A stretch of DNA of 47,462 bases, from positions 1 to 47,462 of the IMG/VR virus record IMGVR_UViG_3300020109_000007; one strand, given 5' to 3'. Positions 2-47,241 of this stretch are shown here, piece after piece; position 1 is the stretch's first letter; the number at the start of each line of letters is the position of its first letter. Source of the stretch: a virus (lineage: Duplodnaviria; Heunggongvirae; Uroviricota; Caudoviricetes). The position numbers were made by a program, and so were the translations under genes. A model generated the notes under the pieces. That model was not told the origin of the DNA and ran no database searches. It saw nothing but the letters and a program-made list of their open reading frames with translations.

Positions 2-82
2 TCTTCAAGGAATCACGCAGCACTTTGGTATTTTCTACGCAGATGTAAGGCACGACAAGCGGCTCAGGCCCAGGAAAATTAA
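2..82 (+). CDS. 3' end of an upstream ORF (partial, unknown function)
   Basis: Open frame SSRNHAALWYFLRRCKARQAAQAQEN* ends at TAA 80-82, overlapping the ATG at 82 (TAATG coupling). Confidence 0.3.
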   Translation, partial: SSRNHAALWYFLRRCKARQAAQAQEN

Positions 83-438
83 TGGCAATTCCACTAACCG
101 CAGCAGTCTGGGAAGAGACGATGGATCCCTGTGACTTCGTCGACTACGGAGTCGAGTATCGCGACCTTCTTCAGGACGACGAGGAAGTTACACGATTCAC
201 CGTATCTCTTCTCACCGAGTCCACGCTTCTAGGACTTCAACTCGGCACCGGCCCTCATGCTCCTAAAATCGACGACGAGATGGTTACGATCTGGCTCTCC
301 GTAGACCCAGCAAAGCAAGAGGACGCAGTATACCAGGGAACCGGCGTCAATCTTCCGATTGAGTTTACTTTCTTTACGAACTCGCAGCCCGAGCGTCGTC
401 GTCAGAGAACCGCAGTAGTAAGGGTGGTGCAGAAGTGA
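82..438 (+). CDS. Phage fibre-tail adaptor-like structural protein
   Basis: 118 aa, beta-rich, N-terminal MDPCDFVDYGVEY and C-terminal RRRQRTAVVRVVQK resemble the DPxDxxDY... fibre-adaptor family (recognised from memory). Confidence 0.5.
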   Translation: MAIPLTAAVWEETMDPCDFVDYGVEYRDLLQDDEEVTRFTVSLLTESTLLGLQLGTGPHAPKIDDEMVTIWLSVDPAKQEDAVYQGTGVNLPIEFTFFTNSQPERRRQRTAVVRVVQK

Positions 439-1689: not shown

Positions 1690-2947
1690 GTATTTGGAAT
1701 CGACGCAGGGAGGAATTGAGCCTCTTCCGTCGCAGATTGCAATCATCAACGCAGTAAATAAGTATCGCTTTGTGTGCGCTGCGATCTCTCGTCGTCAGGG
1801 AAAGACGTTTATTGCGAATATAATTGGACAGTGCGTAGCTTTAGTTCCGGGCTGTAACATATTGATTATGTCGCCGAACTATTCCTTGTCCTCTATCTCG
1901 TGGGACTTGCAGCACATGTTGTTGAAGGCGCACAATCTAGAGACTGAGAAGGACAATGCAAAGGATCGTGTGGTAGAGCTGACGAATGGCTCTACGATTC
2001 GCATGGGTTCTGTAAATCAGGTCGACAGTTGCGTAGGGCGTTCCTATGATTTGATTATCTTCGACGAGGCGGCTCTGACGAGTGCGGGTGAGGATGCTTT
2101 TAACGTATCCTTGCGTCCGACACTAGATAGAGATAACGCTCGCGCAATCTTTATTAGTACTCCTCGTGGTAAGAGCAACTGGTTCAGCAAGTTCTATCAG
2201 CGCGGCTTCAGCTCCGAGTTTCCAGACTGGTGTTCGATTCACTCTACTTGGAGGGATAATCCTAGAATGACTGAGGACGACGTTCTGGAAGCAAAGCGCG
2301 CTATGAGTGAGGCTGAGTTTGCTCAGGAGTATGAGGCGTCGTTTAACAGCTATGTCGGTCAGATCTGGAAGCTGGACGAAGACTGCATCGTTGATCCTAA
2401 TGAAGTTGATGAAGAAAGTGGTTTGCTGAAATACCCAGAGTTTGTTCCAGGAGAAGTCGAGCTAGACATGATTTCGGGACTGGACTTAGGTTTTCGAGAC
2501 GCTACTGCTATGTGCGTTATCGGATACAATTACAAAAAAGACAAGTTCTTTGTGTTGGATGAGTATTACGGTAACGAGAAGACTACAGATAAACACGCTG
2601 AAGCAATTCAGTCGATGATCGACAAATGGGCTTTGGACTACATATTCATCGACTCTGCAGCACAGCAGACGCGCTTTGACCTTGCTCAGATGTACGACAT
2701 TCCAACGATCAACGCAAAGAAATCTTTGCTGGATGGAATTGGACACGTCGGGTCTCTGGTAGACAATAATAAGATTCTAGTGAGTCAAAACTGCACCGAA
2801 GTGCTCAAAGCCTTTGACGCTTATCGCTGGGATCCAAACCCAAACCTAATTAAAGAAAAGCCAGTGCACGATGATGCCTCTCACATGGCAGACGCTCTGC
2901 GCTACGCACTCTACTCATTTGAGGGAGCCGTAGGAATCACTTCATGA
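1601..2947 (+). CDS. terL: Terminase large subunit (T5-like)
   Basis: Walker A ISRRQGKT, Walker B LIIFDEAA, coupling motif ISTPRG, nuclease GLDLG and C-terminal HMADALRY. Confidence 0.95.
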   Translation: MALTISRADVVSTEIIENLPNRFIKLPISKYLESTQGGIEPLPSQIAIINAVNKYRFVCAAISRRQGKTFIANIIGQCVALVPGCNILIMSPNYSLSSISWDLQHMLLKAHNLETEKDNAKDRVVELTNGSTIRMGSVNQVDSCVGRSYDLIIFDEAALTSAGEDAFNVSLRPTLDRDNARAIFISTPRGKSNWFSKFYQRGFSSEFPDWCSIHSTWRDNPRMTEDDVLEAKRAMSEAEFAQEYEASFNSYVGQIWKLDEDCIVDPNEVDEESGLLKYPEFVPGEVELDMISGLDLGFRDATAMCVIGYNYKKDKFFVLDEYYGNEKTTDKHAEAIQSMIDKWALDYIFIDSAAQQTRFDLAQMYDIPTINAKKSLLDGIGHVGSLVDNNKILVSQNCTEVLKAFDAYRWDPNPNLIKEKPVHDDASHMADALRYALYSFEGAVGITS

Positions 2948-3480: not shown

Positions 3481-6400
3481 TGAGATTAGGACTAGGTCTG
3501 GGAGTATCACTGCTAACGCTTAGTACTCAGTTATTAGCTACCATTAAACCTATAGAAGTAATTGGTATTCCTGCGATCAGTGGCATCCCACGTATGGAAC
3601 AGACTCTCACCTTCGCTGATCCTGATAATGCTGCGGTAGAGGGTCGTCGTCTGCTGATACGCGGCCCTAACGCTGCTACAGAAACCCCTGGCTCAGATGC
3701 AGGTATTGCTGTGACTGAGGGAGCATTCGAGCTGTCCAACGCCACTCGTAGCGCTCTACGTGGTAAGTCGCTAAGCTACGGCACCTTGGTAAATGGCGAG
3801 TGGCTCCAGTCTGCTTGGACCCCTGACATTGAGGAATTTTACAGCTTCACCGGCGTTCCTAACGGAACCGCACCGGCGTCTGCGCCCGTCAATATGACTT
3901 TTCACTCAGGAGAGGACCAGCTTCAGGTTCTTAACGAAAAACTCACAACTAAAGCCTCTAATGGTGGCACAATCCGCTCCAATCGTGGGACTCCCAGTCA
4001 TTTTGTCGAGACCCGAGTGGATGGCACTGCCAGTCTTGTCAATGGTGAGGCCTATACGCAGCTGTATCTCTGTGCCAATGCCGACCTTTCTACGTTCTTG
4101 CGCGTCGACGCGCAGACGAATGGGTGCTTCGTTTTCGCGAATAGCGTTCTTATCGGCGCGTTCCAGAACTCGAACATGGGTATGAACTTCGGGAAGACGG
4201 GCAATCCCTCGGTTATTCGCGTCCAGCACAAGGTTGAGGGAGCTACTCGATACCTCATCTTGTTCTTCGACGGCACTGAGATTTCGCGCCTGAACCTTAG
4301 CGCGCAAACGGGCGCGACCAAGACGGCTGTTGACGCCACGGCTGCAAACACTCACGTCATGCTCCGCTGCAATCGGTTTGCGACTCTGGACGACATTCTG
4401 TTTGGCTCAGCGCCGATTGAACGGCTTGTAATTTCGCGGATTGCTGAATTCAGCCCTAGCTATGTGCCGGGTGATAAGCGTGCTCGCGTCACAGCGTTTT
4501 CGTTCGAGCCTCTGACGACGCCGATGTTGCGAGTGGAGGCGGACGGACAGGTGCTGCACGACGCCGCTCCTGTTGAATACAATCGCGCCCCGGATGGAAA
4601 TATCGAGGCTGTATGTGGTTACTCCGGTCGTGCGTGGGAGGGTAAGCAGACCACCTTCACCATGTATGACGCAGCCGAACCCACTGTTGCCAGCAACAGA
4701 AACCAGTTGATTAGGGTTGATGCAACGCCTGGTGAGGCTCTGCATGGCATGAACGAGGCTTTTGGGGTTTCCCTACCGGCCATCAACCTGTTCAAGCACT
4801 TCCGGCCGACATGTAATTTTCAGCAATATGACGGAAGGTTTGTAAACCGATCTGTCTTTCCGGCACGTCTGTTGGTGGACAGTGCTCAGGCAGCTCGTGC
4901 GCCATATCTTCATGAGAATGGTGTGGATACCGTTCATCCTACAGACCATATTGATGGCTCGTTGATCGGTATTATCGACGGTTCCAATACCATTGCTGGT
5001 CCGATTGACCCTCGCGTCAACCAAGTGAACTTTACGCTGGACGTTCGCTGGCCGTCCGATGCTCAGAATGAACTGTATGGCGATTACGTCGTCGAAATCC
5101 CAACGTCGTGGAGTCTGGAACCAAAGGAAGAAATCGGCAATCAGTGGTTGAAGATCAGTGGTCCCGATACCTTGGTGAAGCCGGGTTTCAAGGTTTGGCG
5201 CTTCCGGAAGAACTGGACTTCTCCCGAAGGGCGAGTTCGTCCCCACGTGGACACCTTCTCCTTCATTAATGGCATGGCCGCCATTCCTTCCCGTGAAGTG
5301 CAGAAGACGGTATTCGTCGGGCGAATTAACGCCGATGGCTCTGACTTTCATGATCGCAGCAAGCTGCTTCGTCCGGTCGCTCGCGCATACCTGACGGGAT
5401 TGAACGGCATGATGCGCTACATGAATGACGCTGGCTGCAACCAGAATTACCAGAATGTCAACCACGCTCCGGCTGATCGAGATGTTAAGGGCAAGATCAT
5501 CACTCCGCAGTTGATGACCCAAGTTGACAGCATGACCTGGGACATCATGCCAATCGAGGCGTATGGGGAGGCTTGCCACGCTAACGGCATGAGCCTCTGG
5601 CTGACCTTCCCAGCACTATTGGACGCCGCTGCTCGGCAGGCCCTCTTCAATCGGGCCAAGGCATCTATGCCAGCGGGGCGAAAGATCGGCGGCACGGTGT
5701 CCAACGAGCGCTGGCACTTTGCTCCAGCCTTCCAGCAGACGTTCGATCTTGCTGCCCGTCAAATTGCAGCTGGCCGCTCGGAGTTGTGGATGCAACACGC
5801 AGTTGAGTGCTGCGAACTGTTTGACCAGTTCGCGGATGAACCGGACTTTATTCCGATTTTTGAATGGCAGTTCGGAAACTACACCGCTGCTGAGGGGATC
5901 GTAACCAACTACCTCAACTACCCTATTCCCTCTGGTGGCACTTTGGGTGATCGACTGTCGATCGGCGGTGAGGATCAGCCTGGGCTTATCGTGGGCGCGA
6001 TCTACGTTGGCGACCTCATGGCCTCGTTTGACGAAAACGGAGAGGTGCGTGCCCAAGGGTTTAACGGGGTCAACCGCAGGTACGTCAACATTGCCGGTCT
6101 GGCAGCGAACCTTGGCGATCCGCAAACCGCCAAGAACTACCTCCTGTCCGGCCTCCGCACATGCCTCGAAACGTTCACGAAGCCCGCAAACTACAGAGCA
6201 TGCAATGAGATCGCGCGGGCGAATGTCGCTGCCGGGAGACCGGCCAACTCGGTGATCCATGGCCTGTATGAGTGGGCTGCCCAGAACTTTATCTTCGACA
6301 GCGGGAACCCTGCCGCGCCCGTCACCAAGCAGCAATACACCGATCGAGTTCTACAGCTCCTCAGAAGCCCGGAATATGGAGCGTTCTTTGCTGAGGTGAC

Positions 6401-41537: not shown

Positions 41538-42803
41538 TTATATGTACTCGATTTCAAATCCATGCTTCATATAAAAGCCAACTCGATTGTTAAACTGCCG
41601 CTCTGTAGTGGCGCCTCGTAATATGGGATCTACTACAATTGGCTGAGGCTTATCTGGGTGCAGCCGCTCGATTCTTCCTATCAACTGCTCTAATAGAGGG
41701 TCGTTATTAATAGGTGTAGCCATAATTAGACAGCTTAAAGGATTATATGAAATACCCTCTTTAAAGATAGCAGTGGTTGCACTCATAGAAAGAGTTTCAC
41801 CTCGATCCATCTTAGCAAATTCGCCTTTACGATCTTTAGTTGCTCCTACAATTAGAGAGGTATTATTGCGCTTAGATAACTCTTCTAGAAACTCTACTCG
41901 ATCACATACTAGTAGAACTCTATGACCCTTGCGCTCGTAATGGCTTATTAAGTTGGAAATTAAATCCTTATATAAGTGAGAGTCGCACAGTTGCGTGACC
42001 TGATTCGCCCAGCCGCCACTGTAAGGAAAAGTTATGCCAGTATTCACTGCGTGAACAATAGGGCGCATACTATTTTCTTTTGGAGGCTTGTATACCTTAG
42101 TTCCGAAATAGTCAGGAATTACTACATGCTTACCGTCTCGTCTCTCCAGAGTTCCCGACAGCCCGATCTTATATCGAGCAAATGAACGATCTACAATCTT
42201 AGTAAAAGTGTTGCTAGGTGTATGATGGCACTCATCAACTAATATTGTACCAAACTCTTTACCCAATCCATCCATGCGCGTGTAAAGACTCGCGACATTT
42301 CCTATGGTGATCGGCGCAGAGTAATCACATTTTCCTCCTCCAATTGTTCCTGGAGTAAAGTCGTAACTCTTCTCAACTTCTTCTACCCATTGGTGCATTA
42401 GAGGTAGAGTGTGCACTACAACTAGAGTTTTTAGTCCGAATTTGCCTGAAATAGCGCAACCCGTAAAGGTCTTACCCCAAGAAGGTTTCGCGTTTATGAG
42501 CGCATTATCTTCTATATCATCAAAGATAGCCTGTTGCGACTCTCTTAGATCAAACTTAAAAGCTGGAAAAGTCTCCTCAGGCTTACAACGTTTGTCTACT
42601 ACTTCATAGTCTTCTGGTATGAGGTCAGTTCTACCGATGGGTAGACTTAAAATATCCTTTCGAAAGGTAGTAGAGAGATTTCGTATAATAAGAGGCGGCC
42701 CATCTCCATAAGTAGGAATCTTATAAGTTAAAGCCTCCCTAAGCTCTTTTTCGAGCTTAGGGGTTGCTTCTATAAATATTCTATTACTGAGTACCGCTTT
42801 CAT
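41538..42803 (-). CDS. Superfamily 2 helicase (T5 D10-like)
   Basis: KPSWGKT, LVDECHH, GLSGT, EGIS, QLIGRIER. Confidence 0.9.
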   Translation of the reverse strand: MKAVLSNRIFIEATPKLEKELREALTYKIPTYGDGPPLIIRNLSTTFRKDILSLPIGRTDLIPEDYEVVDKRCKPEETFPAFKFDLRESQQAIFDDIEDNALINAKPSWGKTFTGCAISGKFGLKTLVVVHTLPLMHQWVEEVEKSYDFTPGTIGGGKCDYSAPITIGNVASLYTRMDGLGKEFGTILVDECHHTPSNTFTKIVDRSFARYKIGLSGTLERRDGKHVVIPDYFGTKVYKPPKENSMRPIVHAVNTGITFPYSGGWANQVTQLCDSHLYKDLISNLISHYERKGHRVLLVCDRVEFLEELSKRNNTSLIVGATKDRKGEFAKMDRGETLSMSATTAIFKEGISYNPLSCLIMATPINNDPLLEQLIGRIERLHPDKPQPIVVDPILRGATTERQFNNRVGFYMKHGFEIEYI

Positions 42804-43476: not shown

Positions 43477-43971
43477 TTACACTTTTCTGTAAGTGTCCTT
43501 TGTGGGGTGACTTACGTAATCATAGAGCAACCAGGGGTGCCTTCCTTGATGAAGGACTCTAGCGTAAGCCGCTAGCTCTCCGGGAGGTCTAGGTATAGTT
43601 ATAGGAAAAGAAACACCATGAAGCCACAATAAAGAAGCTTCACCCTTATGTTGCACTGATTTTATCTTATAGCATTTTAACTTACTGCTATAAGTTTTCT
43701 CATAGATTAAGGGCGTGCCTTTAGAATCTATAAAAAATTTGTGGCGATTATTTACCATCTCTGAAGGGTGGAACACAGCTTTCTTCAAAGGTTGCAGGTC
43801 TGATCTACCGCACTGTATTCGACGTATGCCTAGAGTTTCCCCCGGCATATTCCTTTCGTCTAGTACTTTATCGTCTAGGAAAAGTACTCCGTCCGTGCTA
43901 AACCAATTATCATTGGGTAGCACGAACAGAGGGTAGTTAAGCCGCAATAAGCTCTTGTACGTTATCGTCAT
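43477..43971 (-). CDS. Conserved T5-like protein downstream of the DNA polymerase (start reassigned to ATG 43971)
   Basis: MTITYKSL...VLDERNMPGETLGIRRIQ...FIDSKG; the longer track start overlaps polymerase exon 2 too extensively. Confidence 0.65.
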   Translation of the reverse strand: MTITYKSLLRLNYPLFVLPNDNWFSTDGVLFLDDKVLDERNMPGETLGIRRIQCGRSDLQPLKKAVFHPSEMVNNRHKFFIDSKGTPLIYEKTYSSKLKCYKIKSVQHKGEASLLWLHGVSFPITIPRPPGELAAYARVLHQGRHPWLLYDYVSHPTKDTYRKV

Positions 43972-44552
43972 GAGATGAGTTCCAATAATCCTCATACTGT
44001 TCGTACTTGGTTTTTGGATTATCGTTGTCATTACCAAATGAGTAATCAGGACCAACTTCAAAGTCGCATCCGATAGGAGACCCTGGAATAGATACACCCC
44101 TATCAGCCTGAATGAAGCCTCTTAGAATTTCTCCATACTCGTCGGCTAGATCTTCCCTGACTTCTGCAAGAATAGAGTCGTGCACCAGAGCGAAGATGCG
44201 AGCATCAAAGGCTGGATTTGCATTAAGCCAATTCTGCATATCAATAGCAGCTAGCAAGTTAATATCGCTCGCAACAGACTGTACTAGAAAGTTAATTCCA
44301 GAACGCTGCGTGTGTCCCGCGATGCCTCTATCACTAGAAAATACGTTAGGAAGCCTGCGCTTTCTGCCGAAGTGGCTGTAAACATAGCCCTTCTCTCCGA
44401 TGAACTCTTTGTTGGAGTCAATCCAATTACGTAGAGATTTAAACTTCTTAAAGTACTCGTCAATATATTCCTGTGCCTGTTCCTTGTTGCAGTTCACTCC
44501 CGAATCTTTTGTAATCTGCCAAGCAATCTTAGCTGGTCCTGCCTGATACATA
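43937..44552 (-). CDS. polA: DNA polymerase (family A), exon 2
   Basis: (I)MYQAGPAKIA continues motif B; GRKRRLP, INFLVQSVASD, motif C LVHDSI. Confidence 0.93.
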
Positions 44553-44592
44553 CTGTTATTCCATAGTTTTCACTATGGCATGGACTATACCT

Positions 44593-45255
44593 TCATCTAG
44601 TTTTTATACCTCTATTCAAAATATCTAAATAGTAATTGTACTTTCTGCTCAACCTAAGATTCTCTGTAGAATTTGAGTATATGTTACTTAGAAACCTACG
44701 AGAAGAGTTAGTACAATATTTAATAACCTTAACTTTAGCTTTGGTTTGAACAGTCCCATTTAGCTCTAATAACGGATATAGTTCGTCTATTAAAGTATAA
44801 CTACCTACTATAGTGGTATATAAGGTTGCTGTCTTACTGTTTTTATTACTAAAGCTTTCACATATACAACCGTCACCATCAAAGTACCCCCGTACAAAAT
44901 TCCAAAAGAATTTGTCCGGAATAATAGGTAGCTCGTAAGTTTCAGTCTTTCTTTCTGTGATATTAAAGTTATATAGTAAATCTTTATTAATTTGCTTATT
45001 TACGAATGCAGTCTGTGCCCTGTCGTATTTATCAGTATTTACAGATATTTTATGGTTAGATCCTACAAAGGATTGGAACTTCTGTATATGATCTAAGTCT
45101 TGACTATGTAAGCAAATATATAAGGATCCATTAGATATACAACCATCTGCTGCTAAAAATCCTGCCCAGTAGCAAGACTTCTCCGTATACTCAGAGAAGC
45201 AGTAGGGGTTTAATATTCTGGGTTTTTCTAGATGCTCGCCTTTTATAACTTTCAT
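44593..45255 (-). CDS. Intron-encoded two-motif LAGLIDADG homing endonuclease
   Basis: YWAGFLAADGCI and FVRGYFDGDGCI about 100 aa apart; C-terminal LRLSRK; lies between the R and S elements. Confidence 0.88.
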   Translation of the reverse strand: MKVIKGEHLEKPRILNPYCFSEYTEKSCYWAGFLAADGCISNGSLYICLHSQDLDHIQKFQSFVGSNHKISVNTDKYDRAQTAFVNKQINKDLLYNFNITERKTETYELPIIPDKFFWNFVRGYFDGDGCICESFSNKNSKTATLYTTIVGSYTLIDELYPLLELNGTVQTKAKVKVIKYCTNSSRRFLSNIYSNSTENLRLSRKYNYYLDILNRGIKTR

Positions 45256-45261
45256 TTTGTA

Positions 45262-45290
45262 ATTCTAAAGAATTTATACCAAAATGTCAA
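45262..45290 (-). promoter_or_regulatory. Intron-internal sigma70-type promoter for the endonuclease
   Basis: AAATTTTAATC-TTGACA-17 nt-TAGAAT-6 nt-ATG. Confidence 0.75.
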
Positions 45291-45475
45291 GATTAAAATT
45301 TCTTGAAGGTTATCCCAGCAACTTCTGTTCTAGAAGTTCTGTAAGTCTCTGAACCATTGCATAGCTTTCCAGCTATGTCTGGCTGCTGATTGCCATCGCC
45401 ATCACGCGTTAAGGTTTCCAGCAATTGAGCGAGTTTATTACTCTTAAGTTACCTTAAGAGAGCACTATGTTATTA

Positions 45476-47241
45476 ATGCCGAATGTAATAGCCTTAGCCG
45501 CCTGACGAAGCAGAGGGTACTTTTTCTTCACTTCTTCAACTGGGCAGTCTAGCTGAAAGACCATCTTAGCAATGGTACTGTGAAAGTCGCCTCCCTGTTT
45601 GAATACCTCCATAAGAGTTTTGTCTTTGGAGAGAACCGCAGCAACATAAACTTCTGCGGTGGTCAAGTCCATAGATACGATCTTGTAACCAGGCTTTGCT
45701 TTGATACAACCCTTAACAGCGGCAGTAAATCCAGGAATCTTTACTCCATCTACTTCCTTTGTATTATCACGAGGAAGCTGCTGCATGTTTAGCTTGCCTG
45801 ATGAAGACAGACGACCTGAGGTAGTAGAATGTAGATTGAAGTTAGTTCGAAGTCTGCAGTCTCGGTCTAGCTGAGGAAGAATTTTATCTAGGTATGTATT
45901 CTTAATCTTAGACTTCTTGCGAATATCTAAAATAAGTCCAGGTACCGGATGCTCTTCTGCAAGCTCCTCTAGAACTTCTGCATCCGTAGAATCTTTTCCT
46001 GTATCCGTCTTCTTACCAGTCGGAGTTAATTTCAAATGGTCGAACAGCAAGCTTCTAAGCTGCATGACAGATCCAGGGTTAAACTCCTTGCCTTGAGCCT
46101 CTTCAAACTGACGAATAATAGGATTCTGATACATCTTAGCAACAGCTTCGTCAATATCTGTCTGCATCATGATCTGCGCCTTCTTTAGGCGATCTCGATC
46201 AAAAGGTACCCCATTATCTTGGATTTGTTCTAGAAAAGTACTTCCAGGAATAAGAATATTATCGTAGACCCACAGGAGTCTCTTGTTCTTCAAGATTGCA
46301 GGCTTAAGTTGACAGTAGATAAGAAACGTAACTACAGAGTCAATAGCAGCGTAGATCTTAATAATGTCAAAAGGAATAAGATCGAAGGTAAAGTCGTCCT
46401 TTAGGATACCGTGCTTCTTACGGTAATCCTCAATGAACTCGTACATTGGCTTTTCATAGTCGCCGTACTTGGTCATCTTCAATGCTAGTTGCTTTAGACC
46501 ATGATTGCCTGGATTTTCATCAATTAGGTAGTGCAGAAGCATGGTATCTTCATACACTGGAAAAGACCAGCCAAAATGAAAGGACAACATTCCACGGTCG
46601 AACTTCGCGTTGTGAAAGACTACCGTCTTTTTATTCCAGAGTTCCTGCAGTAGTGCAGAGACGGCTTCTGTAATGCAGTCTGAGCTGATATATGCTCCAT
46701 GATCTCTCTCATAGCAGAGACTGATTCCCAGGACATATCCATCTCTCGGATAGAGGCAAGTAGTTTCAGAGTCAAGGGCGACAAAGGGGTTGGGTGAGTC
46801 GATTGCGGCCTGGACGTAAGATAACGCTTCCTCCTCCGTCGTAATTCCGTAAAATCTATCTGTGTCATACCCCATTACCTTTTGTTCGCCAGTTACATAA
46901 GCTGTAAGACTCTCTCTAGAGTCTTGCCAGAGTTTGTTTGCTTCTGGCTTAAATGTAATCATCGCAGGGTTAATAATAGGAATGAACTTCTCATTCACTA
47001 CCTTACCACTGTAATCAGATATGGAACCGTTCTTAGTGTAGTACTTAAAAGCGTCAGCACCAACTAGAATAATCCACTCATAATCGTCTACATTCAGCTC
47101 AATATCTACATCCTTCTTTAGAACCTTCTTGAGTGTAGCGTCTGAACATAGAGCAAATCGGTCGAACTCAAACTTGTGCTCGAAAGCAGCTGCAAAATCC
47201 GTTCTGCTTGGTTTGGTTTCGACCAAGGCTATCTTAGCCAT
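45476..47241 (-). CDS. polA: DNA polymerase (family A), exon 1: N-terminal accessory domain, 3'-5' exonuclease, motif A and the first half of motif B
   Basis: ALDSETT, FHNAKFD, YAAID, TSGRLSSS, MDLTTAEV, DFHSTIA, RQAAKAITFG; spliced ORF = 1766+616 nt = 793 aa. Confidence 0.95.

Follow-up and report, generated by a model that had tools for sequence, protein, structure and literature searches.

A probable mobile group I intron interrupts motif B of a T5-like phage's DNA polymerase gene

Introduction

How can a phage obtain an intact replicase from a polymerase gene that is cut in two within catalytic motif B? This question is raised by a locus in the window, by which we mean the whole stretch of 47,462 nucleotides analysed here (positions 1 to 47,462 of IMG/VR virus record IMGVR_UViG_3300020109_000007). 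On the minus strand of the window, the list of open reading frames (ORFs) contains two frames from a family-A DNA polymerase, one of 595 amino acids (47241..45454) and one of 204 amino acids (44551..43937), and between them lies a LAGLIDADG_3 ORF of 220 amino acids (45255..44593). An initial annotation, made from the letters and the list of ORFs, had proposed that the polymerase fragments are the exons of a single gene split by a group I intron at 44553-45475. Here we present evidence that 45475..44553 is very probably a mobile intron of group I, subgroup IA, situated in the sole family-A polymerase gene of a T5-like phage.

Results

Joining the two polymerase frames restores a colinear protein

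The interrupted gene is made up of the following parts:

45476..47241, minus strand: polymerase exon 1, with the 3'-5' exonuclease domain, the polymerase domain as far as ..KAITFG, plus bases 1 and 2 of an Ile codon
44553..45475, minus strand: very probable group I intron of 923 nucleotides (nt), recognised from RF00028 matches to its two halves, ORF-less homologues and covariation
43937..44552, minus strand: polymerase exon 2, with the remainder of motif B, motif C and the C-terminus

Exon 1 matches Pfam DNA_pol_A_exo1 and profile positions 20-217 of DNA_pol_A, and exon 2 matches positions 230-377 of the latter profile. When position 45476 is joined to 44552, an open frame of 793 amino acids results, the product of which aligns without a gap at the joint with the intron-less polymerases of Enterobacter phage KKP_3711, Proteus phage Stubb and Aeromonas phage AhSzw-1; removal of the intron thus restores an uninterrupted host gene. 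In particular, exon 1 ends ..AAG GCT ATT ACA TTC GGC AT at 45476 and exon 2 starts T ATG TAT CAG at 44552, the predicted spliced junction reads ..TTCGGCAT|TATGTATCAG.., and at the protein level RQAAKAITFG-I-MYQAGPAKIA is aligned with RQAAKAITFGILYGSGPAKVA in intron-less T5-like polymerases. The last complete codon of exon 1 (Gly) aligns with residue 668 of full-length Taq polymerase and with position 440 of the 605-residue Klenow chain, in keeping with the initial annotation, which had put the insertion within motif B. Klenow position 440 is equivalent to Gly763 of E. coli Pol I, and the intron therefore follows the second base of codon 764 and lies in the O-helix, between the equivalents of Phe762 and Tyr766. 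The Phe and Tyr residues of the O-helix contact the incoming nucleotide.

The phage is T5-like; its polymerase protein is only 44-48% identical to its nearest relatives, and a megablast search of the polymerase region against GenBank phages gave no match. The genome, a virus record of 111,462 nt that is 99% complete, contains no second DNA_pol_A gene, and the interrupted gene must therefore yield the replicase.

The insert matches group I introns and belongs to a family at one codon

When cmscan was run in E-value mode, RF00028 matched the first half of the insert from P1 to P3' (45485..45228, 39 bits, E = 3.6e-8) and the second half from P8 to P9 (44680..44561, 25.3 bits, E = 4.5e-4). A blastn search with the intron detected similarity of its core to the intron of Providencia phage PR1, to the polymerase introns of Bacillus phages Hakuna and OmnioDeoPrimus, and to introns of Vibrio phages (terminase) and of Shewanella phage 1/4 (nrdA). 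Relatives were gathered with a DNA pattern derived from two invariant core blocks, which retrieved 36 loci in IMG/VR; the endonuclease used alone as a query found no related loci in viral contigs. The IMG/VR loci, PR1 and the window together provided 20 distinct introns (247-1111 nt) that occupy exactly this codon, and the family counts given below refer to these 20. Two of them, L020 (247 nt) and L041 (253 nt), occur naturally without the ORF and pass the RF00028 cut-off of 50 with 64.6 and 73.5 bits, respectively. The features of a group I core, namely helices P3-P8, the P/Q/R/S elements and a bulged P7, were found with RNAfold, RNAalifold and covariation counts. Together, the RF00028 half-matches, the ORF-less relatives above threshold and the covariation among 20 homologues described below bear out the initial assignment to group I.

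A complete set of core helices can be placed

The predicted elements of the ribozyme are given below, where intron position i equals window coordinate 45476 - i:

45461..45480, minus strand: P1 (exon -5..-1 plus intron 1-2, with 9-15), in which exon GGCAU (45480..45476) and UA face the guide UAGUGCU (45467..45461)
45466..45470, minus strand: P10 guide strand ACAUA (6-10, with exon 2 +1..+5), complementary to UAUGU at 44552..44548 through five Watson-Crick pairs
45441..45460, minus strand: P2 hairpin (16-35), 8 bp with a GUAA loop in RNAfold
45428..45433, minus strand: P3 5' strand CUCGCU (43-48), pairing with GGCGAG at 45240..45235
45353..45423, minus strand: P4-P5-P5a-P6-P6a domain, for which the minimum-energy fold from RNAfold is identical to the model (z = -2.9)
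Intron 53-58 with 87-92, minus strand: P4, with 5' strand AAUUGCUGG (P element) and 3' strand AAUCAGCAGCC (Q element)
Within intron 62-83, minus strand: P5/P5a
Intron 93-96 with 120-123, minus strand: P6
45377..45360, minus strand: P6a (99-116), a GNRA hairpin
45344..45349, minus strand: P7 5' strand GAGACU with bulged A128 (127-132), pairing with 44586..44582; the guanosine-binding helix
45316..45341, minus strand: P7.1 hairpin (135-160), 10 pairs, 8 with compensatory changes
45245..45313, minus strand: P7.2 (163-167 with 227-231), AUAAC/GUUAU around a 59-nt insert, 4 of 5 pairs with compensatory changes
45235..45240, minus strand: P3 3' strand GGCGAG (236-241), part of ORF codons 6-7 and directly after P7.2 in 20 of 20 members
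45228..45234, minus strand: P8 5' strand CAUCUAG (242-248), pairing with CUAGAUG at 44600..44594
44594..44600, minus strand: P8 3' strand CUAGAUG (876-882), pairing with the P8 5' strand
44582..44593, minus strand: J8/7 (AAGGUAU) and P7 3' strand (AGUCC; 890-894), invariant in the family and matching the Rfam consensus
44580..44579 with 44555..44554, minus strand: P9.0, UG with CA (896-897 with 921-922), 2 bp
44578..44561, minus strand: P9 hairpin (898-915) with a GAAA loop, 4-5 pairs with compensatory changes
44553, minus strand: terminal G (intron 923)

RNAfold, run on separate domains, returned the modelled helices as minimum-energy structures. P1 is a helix of 7 bp (z = -5.8 for P1 and P2 together) that places the U45476-G45465 wobble pair at the 5' splice site, and P2 recurs in 19 of the 20 members as a hairpin of 5-8 bp with a four-base, G-rich loop on differing stems. 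Both strands of P3 are invariant in all 20, and RNAalifold predicts this helix independently from the short natural variants; an alternative 3' strand, GAGCAG near the end of the ORF (intron ~825), was rejected in favour of the invariant GGCGAG after P7.2. The R element corresponds to the 5' strand of P7 (GUUCAGAGACU) and the S element to J8/7 and the 3' strand of P7 (AAGGUAUAGUCC), both invariant in the family and matching the Rfam consensus (GUUCAaAGACUA and AAGAUAUAGUC, respectively). In 18 of 20 members P8 forms without a shift of register, on differing sequences. The 59-nt insert of P7.2, which contains a promoter-like site and the start of the ORF, has counterparts in 15 of 20 members and is absent from L020, L023, L031, L040 (PM135), L041 and PR1. 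The initial annotation had noted the P/Q/R/S elements, which we assign to the strands of P4 and P7, as well as three GNRA hairpins, which we recognise as P2, P6a and P9; it had left the P3 and P8 pairings open, and these are now placed on the basis of sequence. The presence of P7.1 and P7.2 between P7 and P3' indicates subgroup IA, and we describe the intron as IA2-like from this architecture and from its DNA similarity to Bastille-type introns.

Helices and guides co-vary across the family

Covariation was counted over the 20 distinct introns. The 20 pairs of P4-P6a are 98.5% canonical and include 6 with compensatory changes (24-45% canonical with a slid partner); P7.1 and P7.2 are 96.6% canonical, with compensatory changes in 12 of 15 pairs, and P9 is 91.2% canonical, with such changes in 4-5 pairs. 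Across the counted domains 22 pairs show compensatory change, sliding the 3' partner by 1-3 columns lowers canonical pairing to 24-55%, and none of 500 column shuffles reached the observed values. From four short natural variants RNAalifold independently recovered P1, P2, P3, P4, P5, P6, P6a, P7.1, P7.2, P8, P9.0 and P9, with double changes in 20 of the 80 predicted pairs; RNAalifold cannot draw the P7 pseudoknot and puts an artefactual pairing in its place.

The internal guides change together with the exons they face. Where the Gly codon is GGC (in the window and L031) the guide is GUGCU, and where it is GGG the guide is GUCCC or GUUCC; likewise, starts of exon 2 with UAUGU, UUUAUA or UUUGUA are accompanied by P10 strands ACAUA/ACAUG, UAUAAA and UACAAA, respectively. 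The terminal G and the U-G wobble of P1 are found in all 20 members. The covariation of P1 and P10 with the exons fixes both splice sites and, combined with colinearity and the terminal G, leaves 45476/44552 as the sole junction. Placing the 3' splice site after G44549, four bases further downstream, would offer a better P9.0 but disrupts the frame, and this alternative was therefore rejected. Accordingly, the exact boundaries of the initial annotation (45475..44553) are retained, as are its P1 (exon GCAU with intron GUGC and a U-G wobble, here extended to 7 bp by RNAfold), its P10 (ACAUA/UAUGU) and its statement that the intron ends in G, which on the minus strand is G44553.

The intron encodes a predicted LAGLIDADG homing endonuclease

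44593..45255, minus strand: predicted homing endonuclease ORF, 220 amino acids with two LAGLIDADG motifs (Pfam, phrog_4645, AlphaFold, Foldseek)

This ORF starts in the loop of P7.2, passes through the 3' strand of P7.2, the 3' strand of P3 and the 5' strand of P8, fills the loop of P8, and ends with a UGA that overlaps the 3' strand of P8 and J8/7. In most relatives the ORF starts within the P8 loop, whereas in the window and in L021 it starts upstream, in the 59-nt insert of the P7.2 loop. Its product matches Pfam LAGLIDADG_3 (PF14528; E = 6.3e-10) in two stretches and phrog_4645 (E = 1e-40), and it contains the motifs GFLAADG (Asp37) and GYFDGDG (Asp128), both catalytic Asp residues being invariant in 15 homologues. 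An AlphaFold model (pLDDT 91.1, pTM 0.89), in which residues 1-8 alone are disordered, has the pseudo-symmetric double-domain fold alpha-beta-beta-alpha-beta-beta-alpha. Although phmmer found no match to the endonuclease among PDB sequences, the fold search with Foldseek did find relatives, ranking I-AniI (1p8k) best, followed by I-Tsp061I (2dch), the bI3 maturase and the I-OnuI group (probability 1.00 and TM 0.56-0.65 to I-AniI, I-Tsp061I and the I-OnuI family). By sequence and model, the product is a monomeric, two-motif LAGLIDADG homing endonuclease that appears intact.

A promoter-like site lies within P7.2

45262..45290, minus strand: sigma-70-like promoter candidate TTGACA-17-TAGAAT, an 11/12 match to the consensus, with a -10 element that ends 6 nt before the ATG of the ORF

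Four such sites occur in the 47-kb window, where 1.46 are expected. Eleven other family members have a site matching at 10-12 of 12 positions in the P7.2 stretch, at the same place in 10 of them. L021, the closest relative, shares the layout of the window, but ten other family members with such a site at this spot start their ORF downstream of the 5' strand of P8. In the RNAfold prediction CAUUUUG (45286..45280) pairs with CAAAAUG (45259..45253) to form a 7-bp stem over the ATG, a stem that is compensated in L021. The -35 and -10 elements flank the upstream strand of the stem, which would therefore be missing from a short internal transcript. The ATG may thus be hidden in the long pre-mRNA and exposed in a transcript started internally. 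Transcription from this site would begin at the ATG (45255) or immediately beside it, and the resulting mRNA would be leaderless; its first nine codons double as the P7.2 3', P3' and P8 5' strands of the ribozyme. To judge from the sequence, a promoter of its own in the P7.2 loop is probably the route by which the endonuclease is expressed. The fuller proposal, that a promoter buried in the ribozyme uncouples endonuclease expression from splicing by way of a leaderless mRNA that starts at 45255, is possible but somewhat less likely to be right than wrong. If it is right, the polymerase transcript would splice without translation inside its core, and the endonuclease would be made only from the short transcript.

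Predicted route of splicing and mobility

The structure suggests the following course of splicing. The polymerase gene would be transcribed as a single pre-mRNA, in which the intron adopts helices P1-P10, P7.1 and P7.2 lying between P7 and P3'. An external guanosine bound in P7 would attack after U45476, positioned by the U-G wobble of P1; P10 and P9.0 would position exon 2 and G44553, and ligation of the exons would re-create AT|T as the Ile codon and KAITFGIMYQAG as the sequence of the O-helix. In mixed infections, the endonuclease would presumably cut intron-less alleles at the exon junction, and repair would copy the intron in; mobility through the encoded enzyme is what this arrangement implies.

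Several observations weigh against an active group I intron at this locus. At the curated gathering score of 50 bits RF00028 has no match in the window, where the 650-nt ORF splits it, or across the whole genome. The check with Infernal and RF00028 that the initial annotation proposed therefore came out mixed, in that it yielded two partial matches (39 and 25.3 bits) but failed to reach that score. P3 and P7 carry no covariation signal because they are invariant throughout the family. P9.0, which comprises 3-4 co-varying base pairs in relatives, has only 2 bp in the window and is offset by one base. The frame of exon 1 extends 7 codons into the intron (45454-45475) and ends at a UAA (45456..45454), whereas in most relatives it stops after 3 codons, ahead of the guide; in the window it crosses the internal guide, and ribosomes could consequently interfere with P1. 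Finally, the ORF overlaps the P7.2 3', P3' and P8 5' strands of the core.

Competing explanations

The intron might be spliced from the RNA and yet depend on a maturase, either its own LAGLIDADG protein or a protein of the host. Indeed, among the best structural matches of the endonuclease are I-AniI, an endonuclease that doubles as a splicing factor, and the bI3 maturase, and both the weak P9.0 and the 59-nt insert in P7.2 would fit a ribozyme in need of help. However, similarity to the fold of I-AniI is common to all monomeric LAGLIDADG enzymes, and the persistence of the ORF-less members L020 and L041 at the same site implies that the core can presumably splice without the protein. Moreover, mild conditions have sufficed for self-splicing of those phage IA2 introns that have been tested (PMC3428280, PMC11878797). 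We consider dependence on a maturase unlikely. It is far less likely still that the ribozyme is dead and the polymerase assembles from two polypeptides, in the manner of the split nrdA of Aeromonas phage Aeh1. This idea could draw on the frame of exon 1, which stops 8 codons past the junction, on exon 2, which begins one base before ATG 44551, and on GenBank, which calls two coding sequences (CDSs) in PM135 and PR1. The cut would nevertheless fall inside the O-helix, between the equivalents of Phe762 and Tyr766, and no Shine-Dalgarno sequence precedes ATG 44551. In addition, all invariant core nucleotides are intact, the guides track the exon sequences, and evolution of the helices by compensatory change argues for selection on RNA structure rather than for a dead ribozyme.

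We regard it as scarcely credible that the insert represents an intein, or that an endonuclease gene stands free between two other genes, in either case with a chance resemblance to a structured RNA. LAGLIDADG domains do occur in inteins, which is the only point in favour; but the insert is out of frame, the exon frame stopping after 7 codons, and Pfam finds no Hint or intein domain, such that frame analysis refutes the intein reading. Chance resemblance is ruled out by the cmscan E-values and the covariation.

Relatives at the same codon and other homes of the core

Among the introns at this codon, ribozyme 5' halves are 75-86% identical to that of the window and endonucleases 35-59% identical to the window's, while the last 190 residues of exon 1 show 46-78% identity among the host polymerases. 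A tblastn search with the ORF found a homologous endonuclease directly after the "first" polymerase CDS in PM135, Proteus phage VTCCBPA139 and PR1; the splice sites of PM135 and PR1 fall in the same codon as those of the window, and VTCCBPA139 has the same layout in its tblastn matches. In GenBank, the corresponding regions of PM135 (L001, NC_042090; 2602-3711) and PR1 (L002, NC_041913; 2584-3694) carry two polymerase CDSs and an 'endonuclease' with no intron feature, which is the mis-annotation as two polymerase fragments that the initial annotation had foreseen.

Other family members contain variations on this arrangement. In L012:4438-4810 (349 nt) and L019:1930-2410 (457 nt) the promoter insert in P7.2 is kept and most of the endonuclease ORF is lost; these introns look like stages of ORF decay in a homing cycle. 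L020 contains a second group I intron (L020:4871-5153, minus strand; RF00028, 79.2 bits), and only ~38 nt separate its end from the motif-B intron downstream (4585-4832), such that the O-helix region would lie on a mini-exon of ~12 codons.

The same core also occurs elsewhere. In two more distant family-A polymerases (L010:2314-2404, with Pfam DNA_pol_A at E = 2.5e-54, and L011, pattern match 2706-2796, minus strand) it sits in motif B 2 nt further upstream, directly after the Gly codon of ..NFG or ..SFG and before I/L-x-Y-G. In seven loci (L014, L015, L016, L017, L018, L027 and L045) it lies in phage RtcB RNA-ligase genes, inserted after ..P.AVGV and before DIGCGM (Pfam RtcB, E about 1e-14 for exon 1 of L016 and L017). 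In L019:4197-4286, L035:4206-4295 and L043:10799-10878 it occupies the Walker A region of a helicase (..LVGWG | KT..) that by eye is homologous to the product of the window's uninterrupted ORF of 421 amino acids (41538..42803); a Pfam search with the short helicase exon gave no match. L019 and L035 each have two copies of the intron family within ~2.2 kb.

Discussion

Our findings suggest that the replicase of the phage represented by the window, of PM135, of PR1 and of ~20 metagenomic T5-like phages is encoded by one spliced gene, which annotation pipelines split. They would add codon 764, in the O-helix, to the sites at which phage polymerase genes carry introns, and they suggest that T5-like phages of Gram-negative hosts commonly carry group I introns with LAGLIDADG enzymes. 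The core appears promiscuous: other phages carry it in their genes for RtcB, helicase, terminase and nrdA. The endonuclease would have a highly conserved stretch of the polymerase gene as its target and could act as a marker-exclusion factor in mixed infections of T5-like therapy phages. We regard the locus as of moderate interest, which derives from the widespread and unannotated family, the O-helix site, and an ORF that overlaps the core and has a built-in putative promoter.

Among the closest known counterparts are those in the Demerecviridae phages PM135, VTCCBPA139 and PR1, which share with the window the codon, the ribozyme (~80% nucleotide identity in the 5' half) and the LAGLIDADG ORF (39% amino acid identity). 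They differ in that their ORFs, of 261 amino acids, have an extra N-terminal segment of ~45 amino acids and start inside the P8 loop, and in that their P7.2 is short and without the promoter insert. In the literature that we covered, which was incomplete and did not extend to the 2025 group I intron database, we found no description of an intron at codon 764 or in polymerases of T5-like phages or Demerecviridae.

Introns in phage polymerase genes have been classic since SPO1, and are known from SP82, phi-e, Bastille, PhiI/W31, phiL7, Pf-WMP3 and KASIA. The introns of SPO1, SP82, phi-e and Bastille (with I-HmuI, I-HmuII as well as I-BasI) and of other Bastillevirinae share with that of the window the IA2-type ribozyme, a location in the conserved catalytic region of a family-A polymerase and a homing endonuclease, and the polymerase intron of Hakuna and OmnioDeoPrimus has ~78% DNA similarity to the core of the window over 100 nt. 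Their hosts are Gram-positive myoviruses, in contrast to the T5-like siphovirus studied here. They also differ in being inserted at site 674 (PMC3428280), not in motif B, and the Hakuna intron proved on inspection to occupy a site of the 674 type. The polymerases of Bastillevirinae contain up to three introns, which encode mostly HNH enzymes and in one case a LAGLIDADG enzyme (PMC11878797); the enzymes of SPO1/Bastille-type introns are mostly nicking HNH enzymes (PMC11878797), unlike the LAGLIDADG enzyme of the window. One published comparison places phage polymerase introns at Pol I sites 674, 676 and 881 (PMC3428280), and the introns of the T7-like phages PhiI and W31 (881), phiL7 (676) and Pf-WMP3 (674) have in common with ours the IA2 class, a family-A polymerase gene, Gram-negative hosts and an intron-encoded endonuclease (PMC3428280). 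Their insertion sites differ from that of the window, whose enzyme is moreover of the LAGLIDADG type and encoded in P8. Bonocora and Shub reportedly found in 2004 that the endonucleases of this second group of introns are HNH enzymes inserted in P6a.

The td, nrdB and nrdD (sunY) introns of T4 resemble the intron described here in their IA2 architecture, which includes P7.1 and P7.2, and in having an endonuclease ORF that loops out from a peripheral helix. They reside in other genes and encode GIY-YIG or HNH enzymes from P6a or P9.1, whereas the ORF in the window lies in P8 and extends into P7.2. Gott et al. are said to have reported in 1988 that the T4 intron ORFs use promoters of their own and that the start site is occluded in the long transcript. 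Judged from its sequence, the intron in the window appears to be a known kind of selfish element, at a position, codon 764, that lies outside the compared sites 674, 676 and 881.

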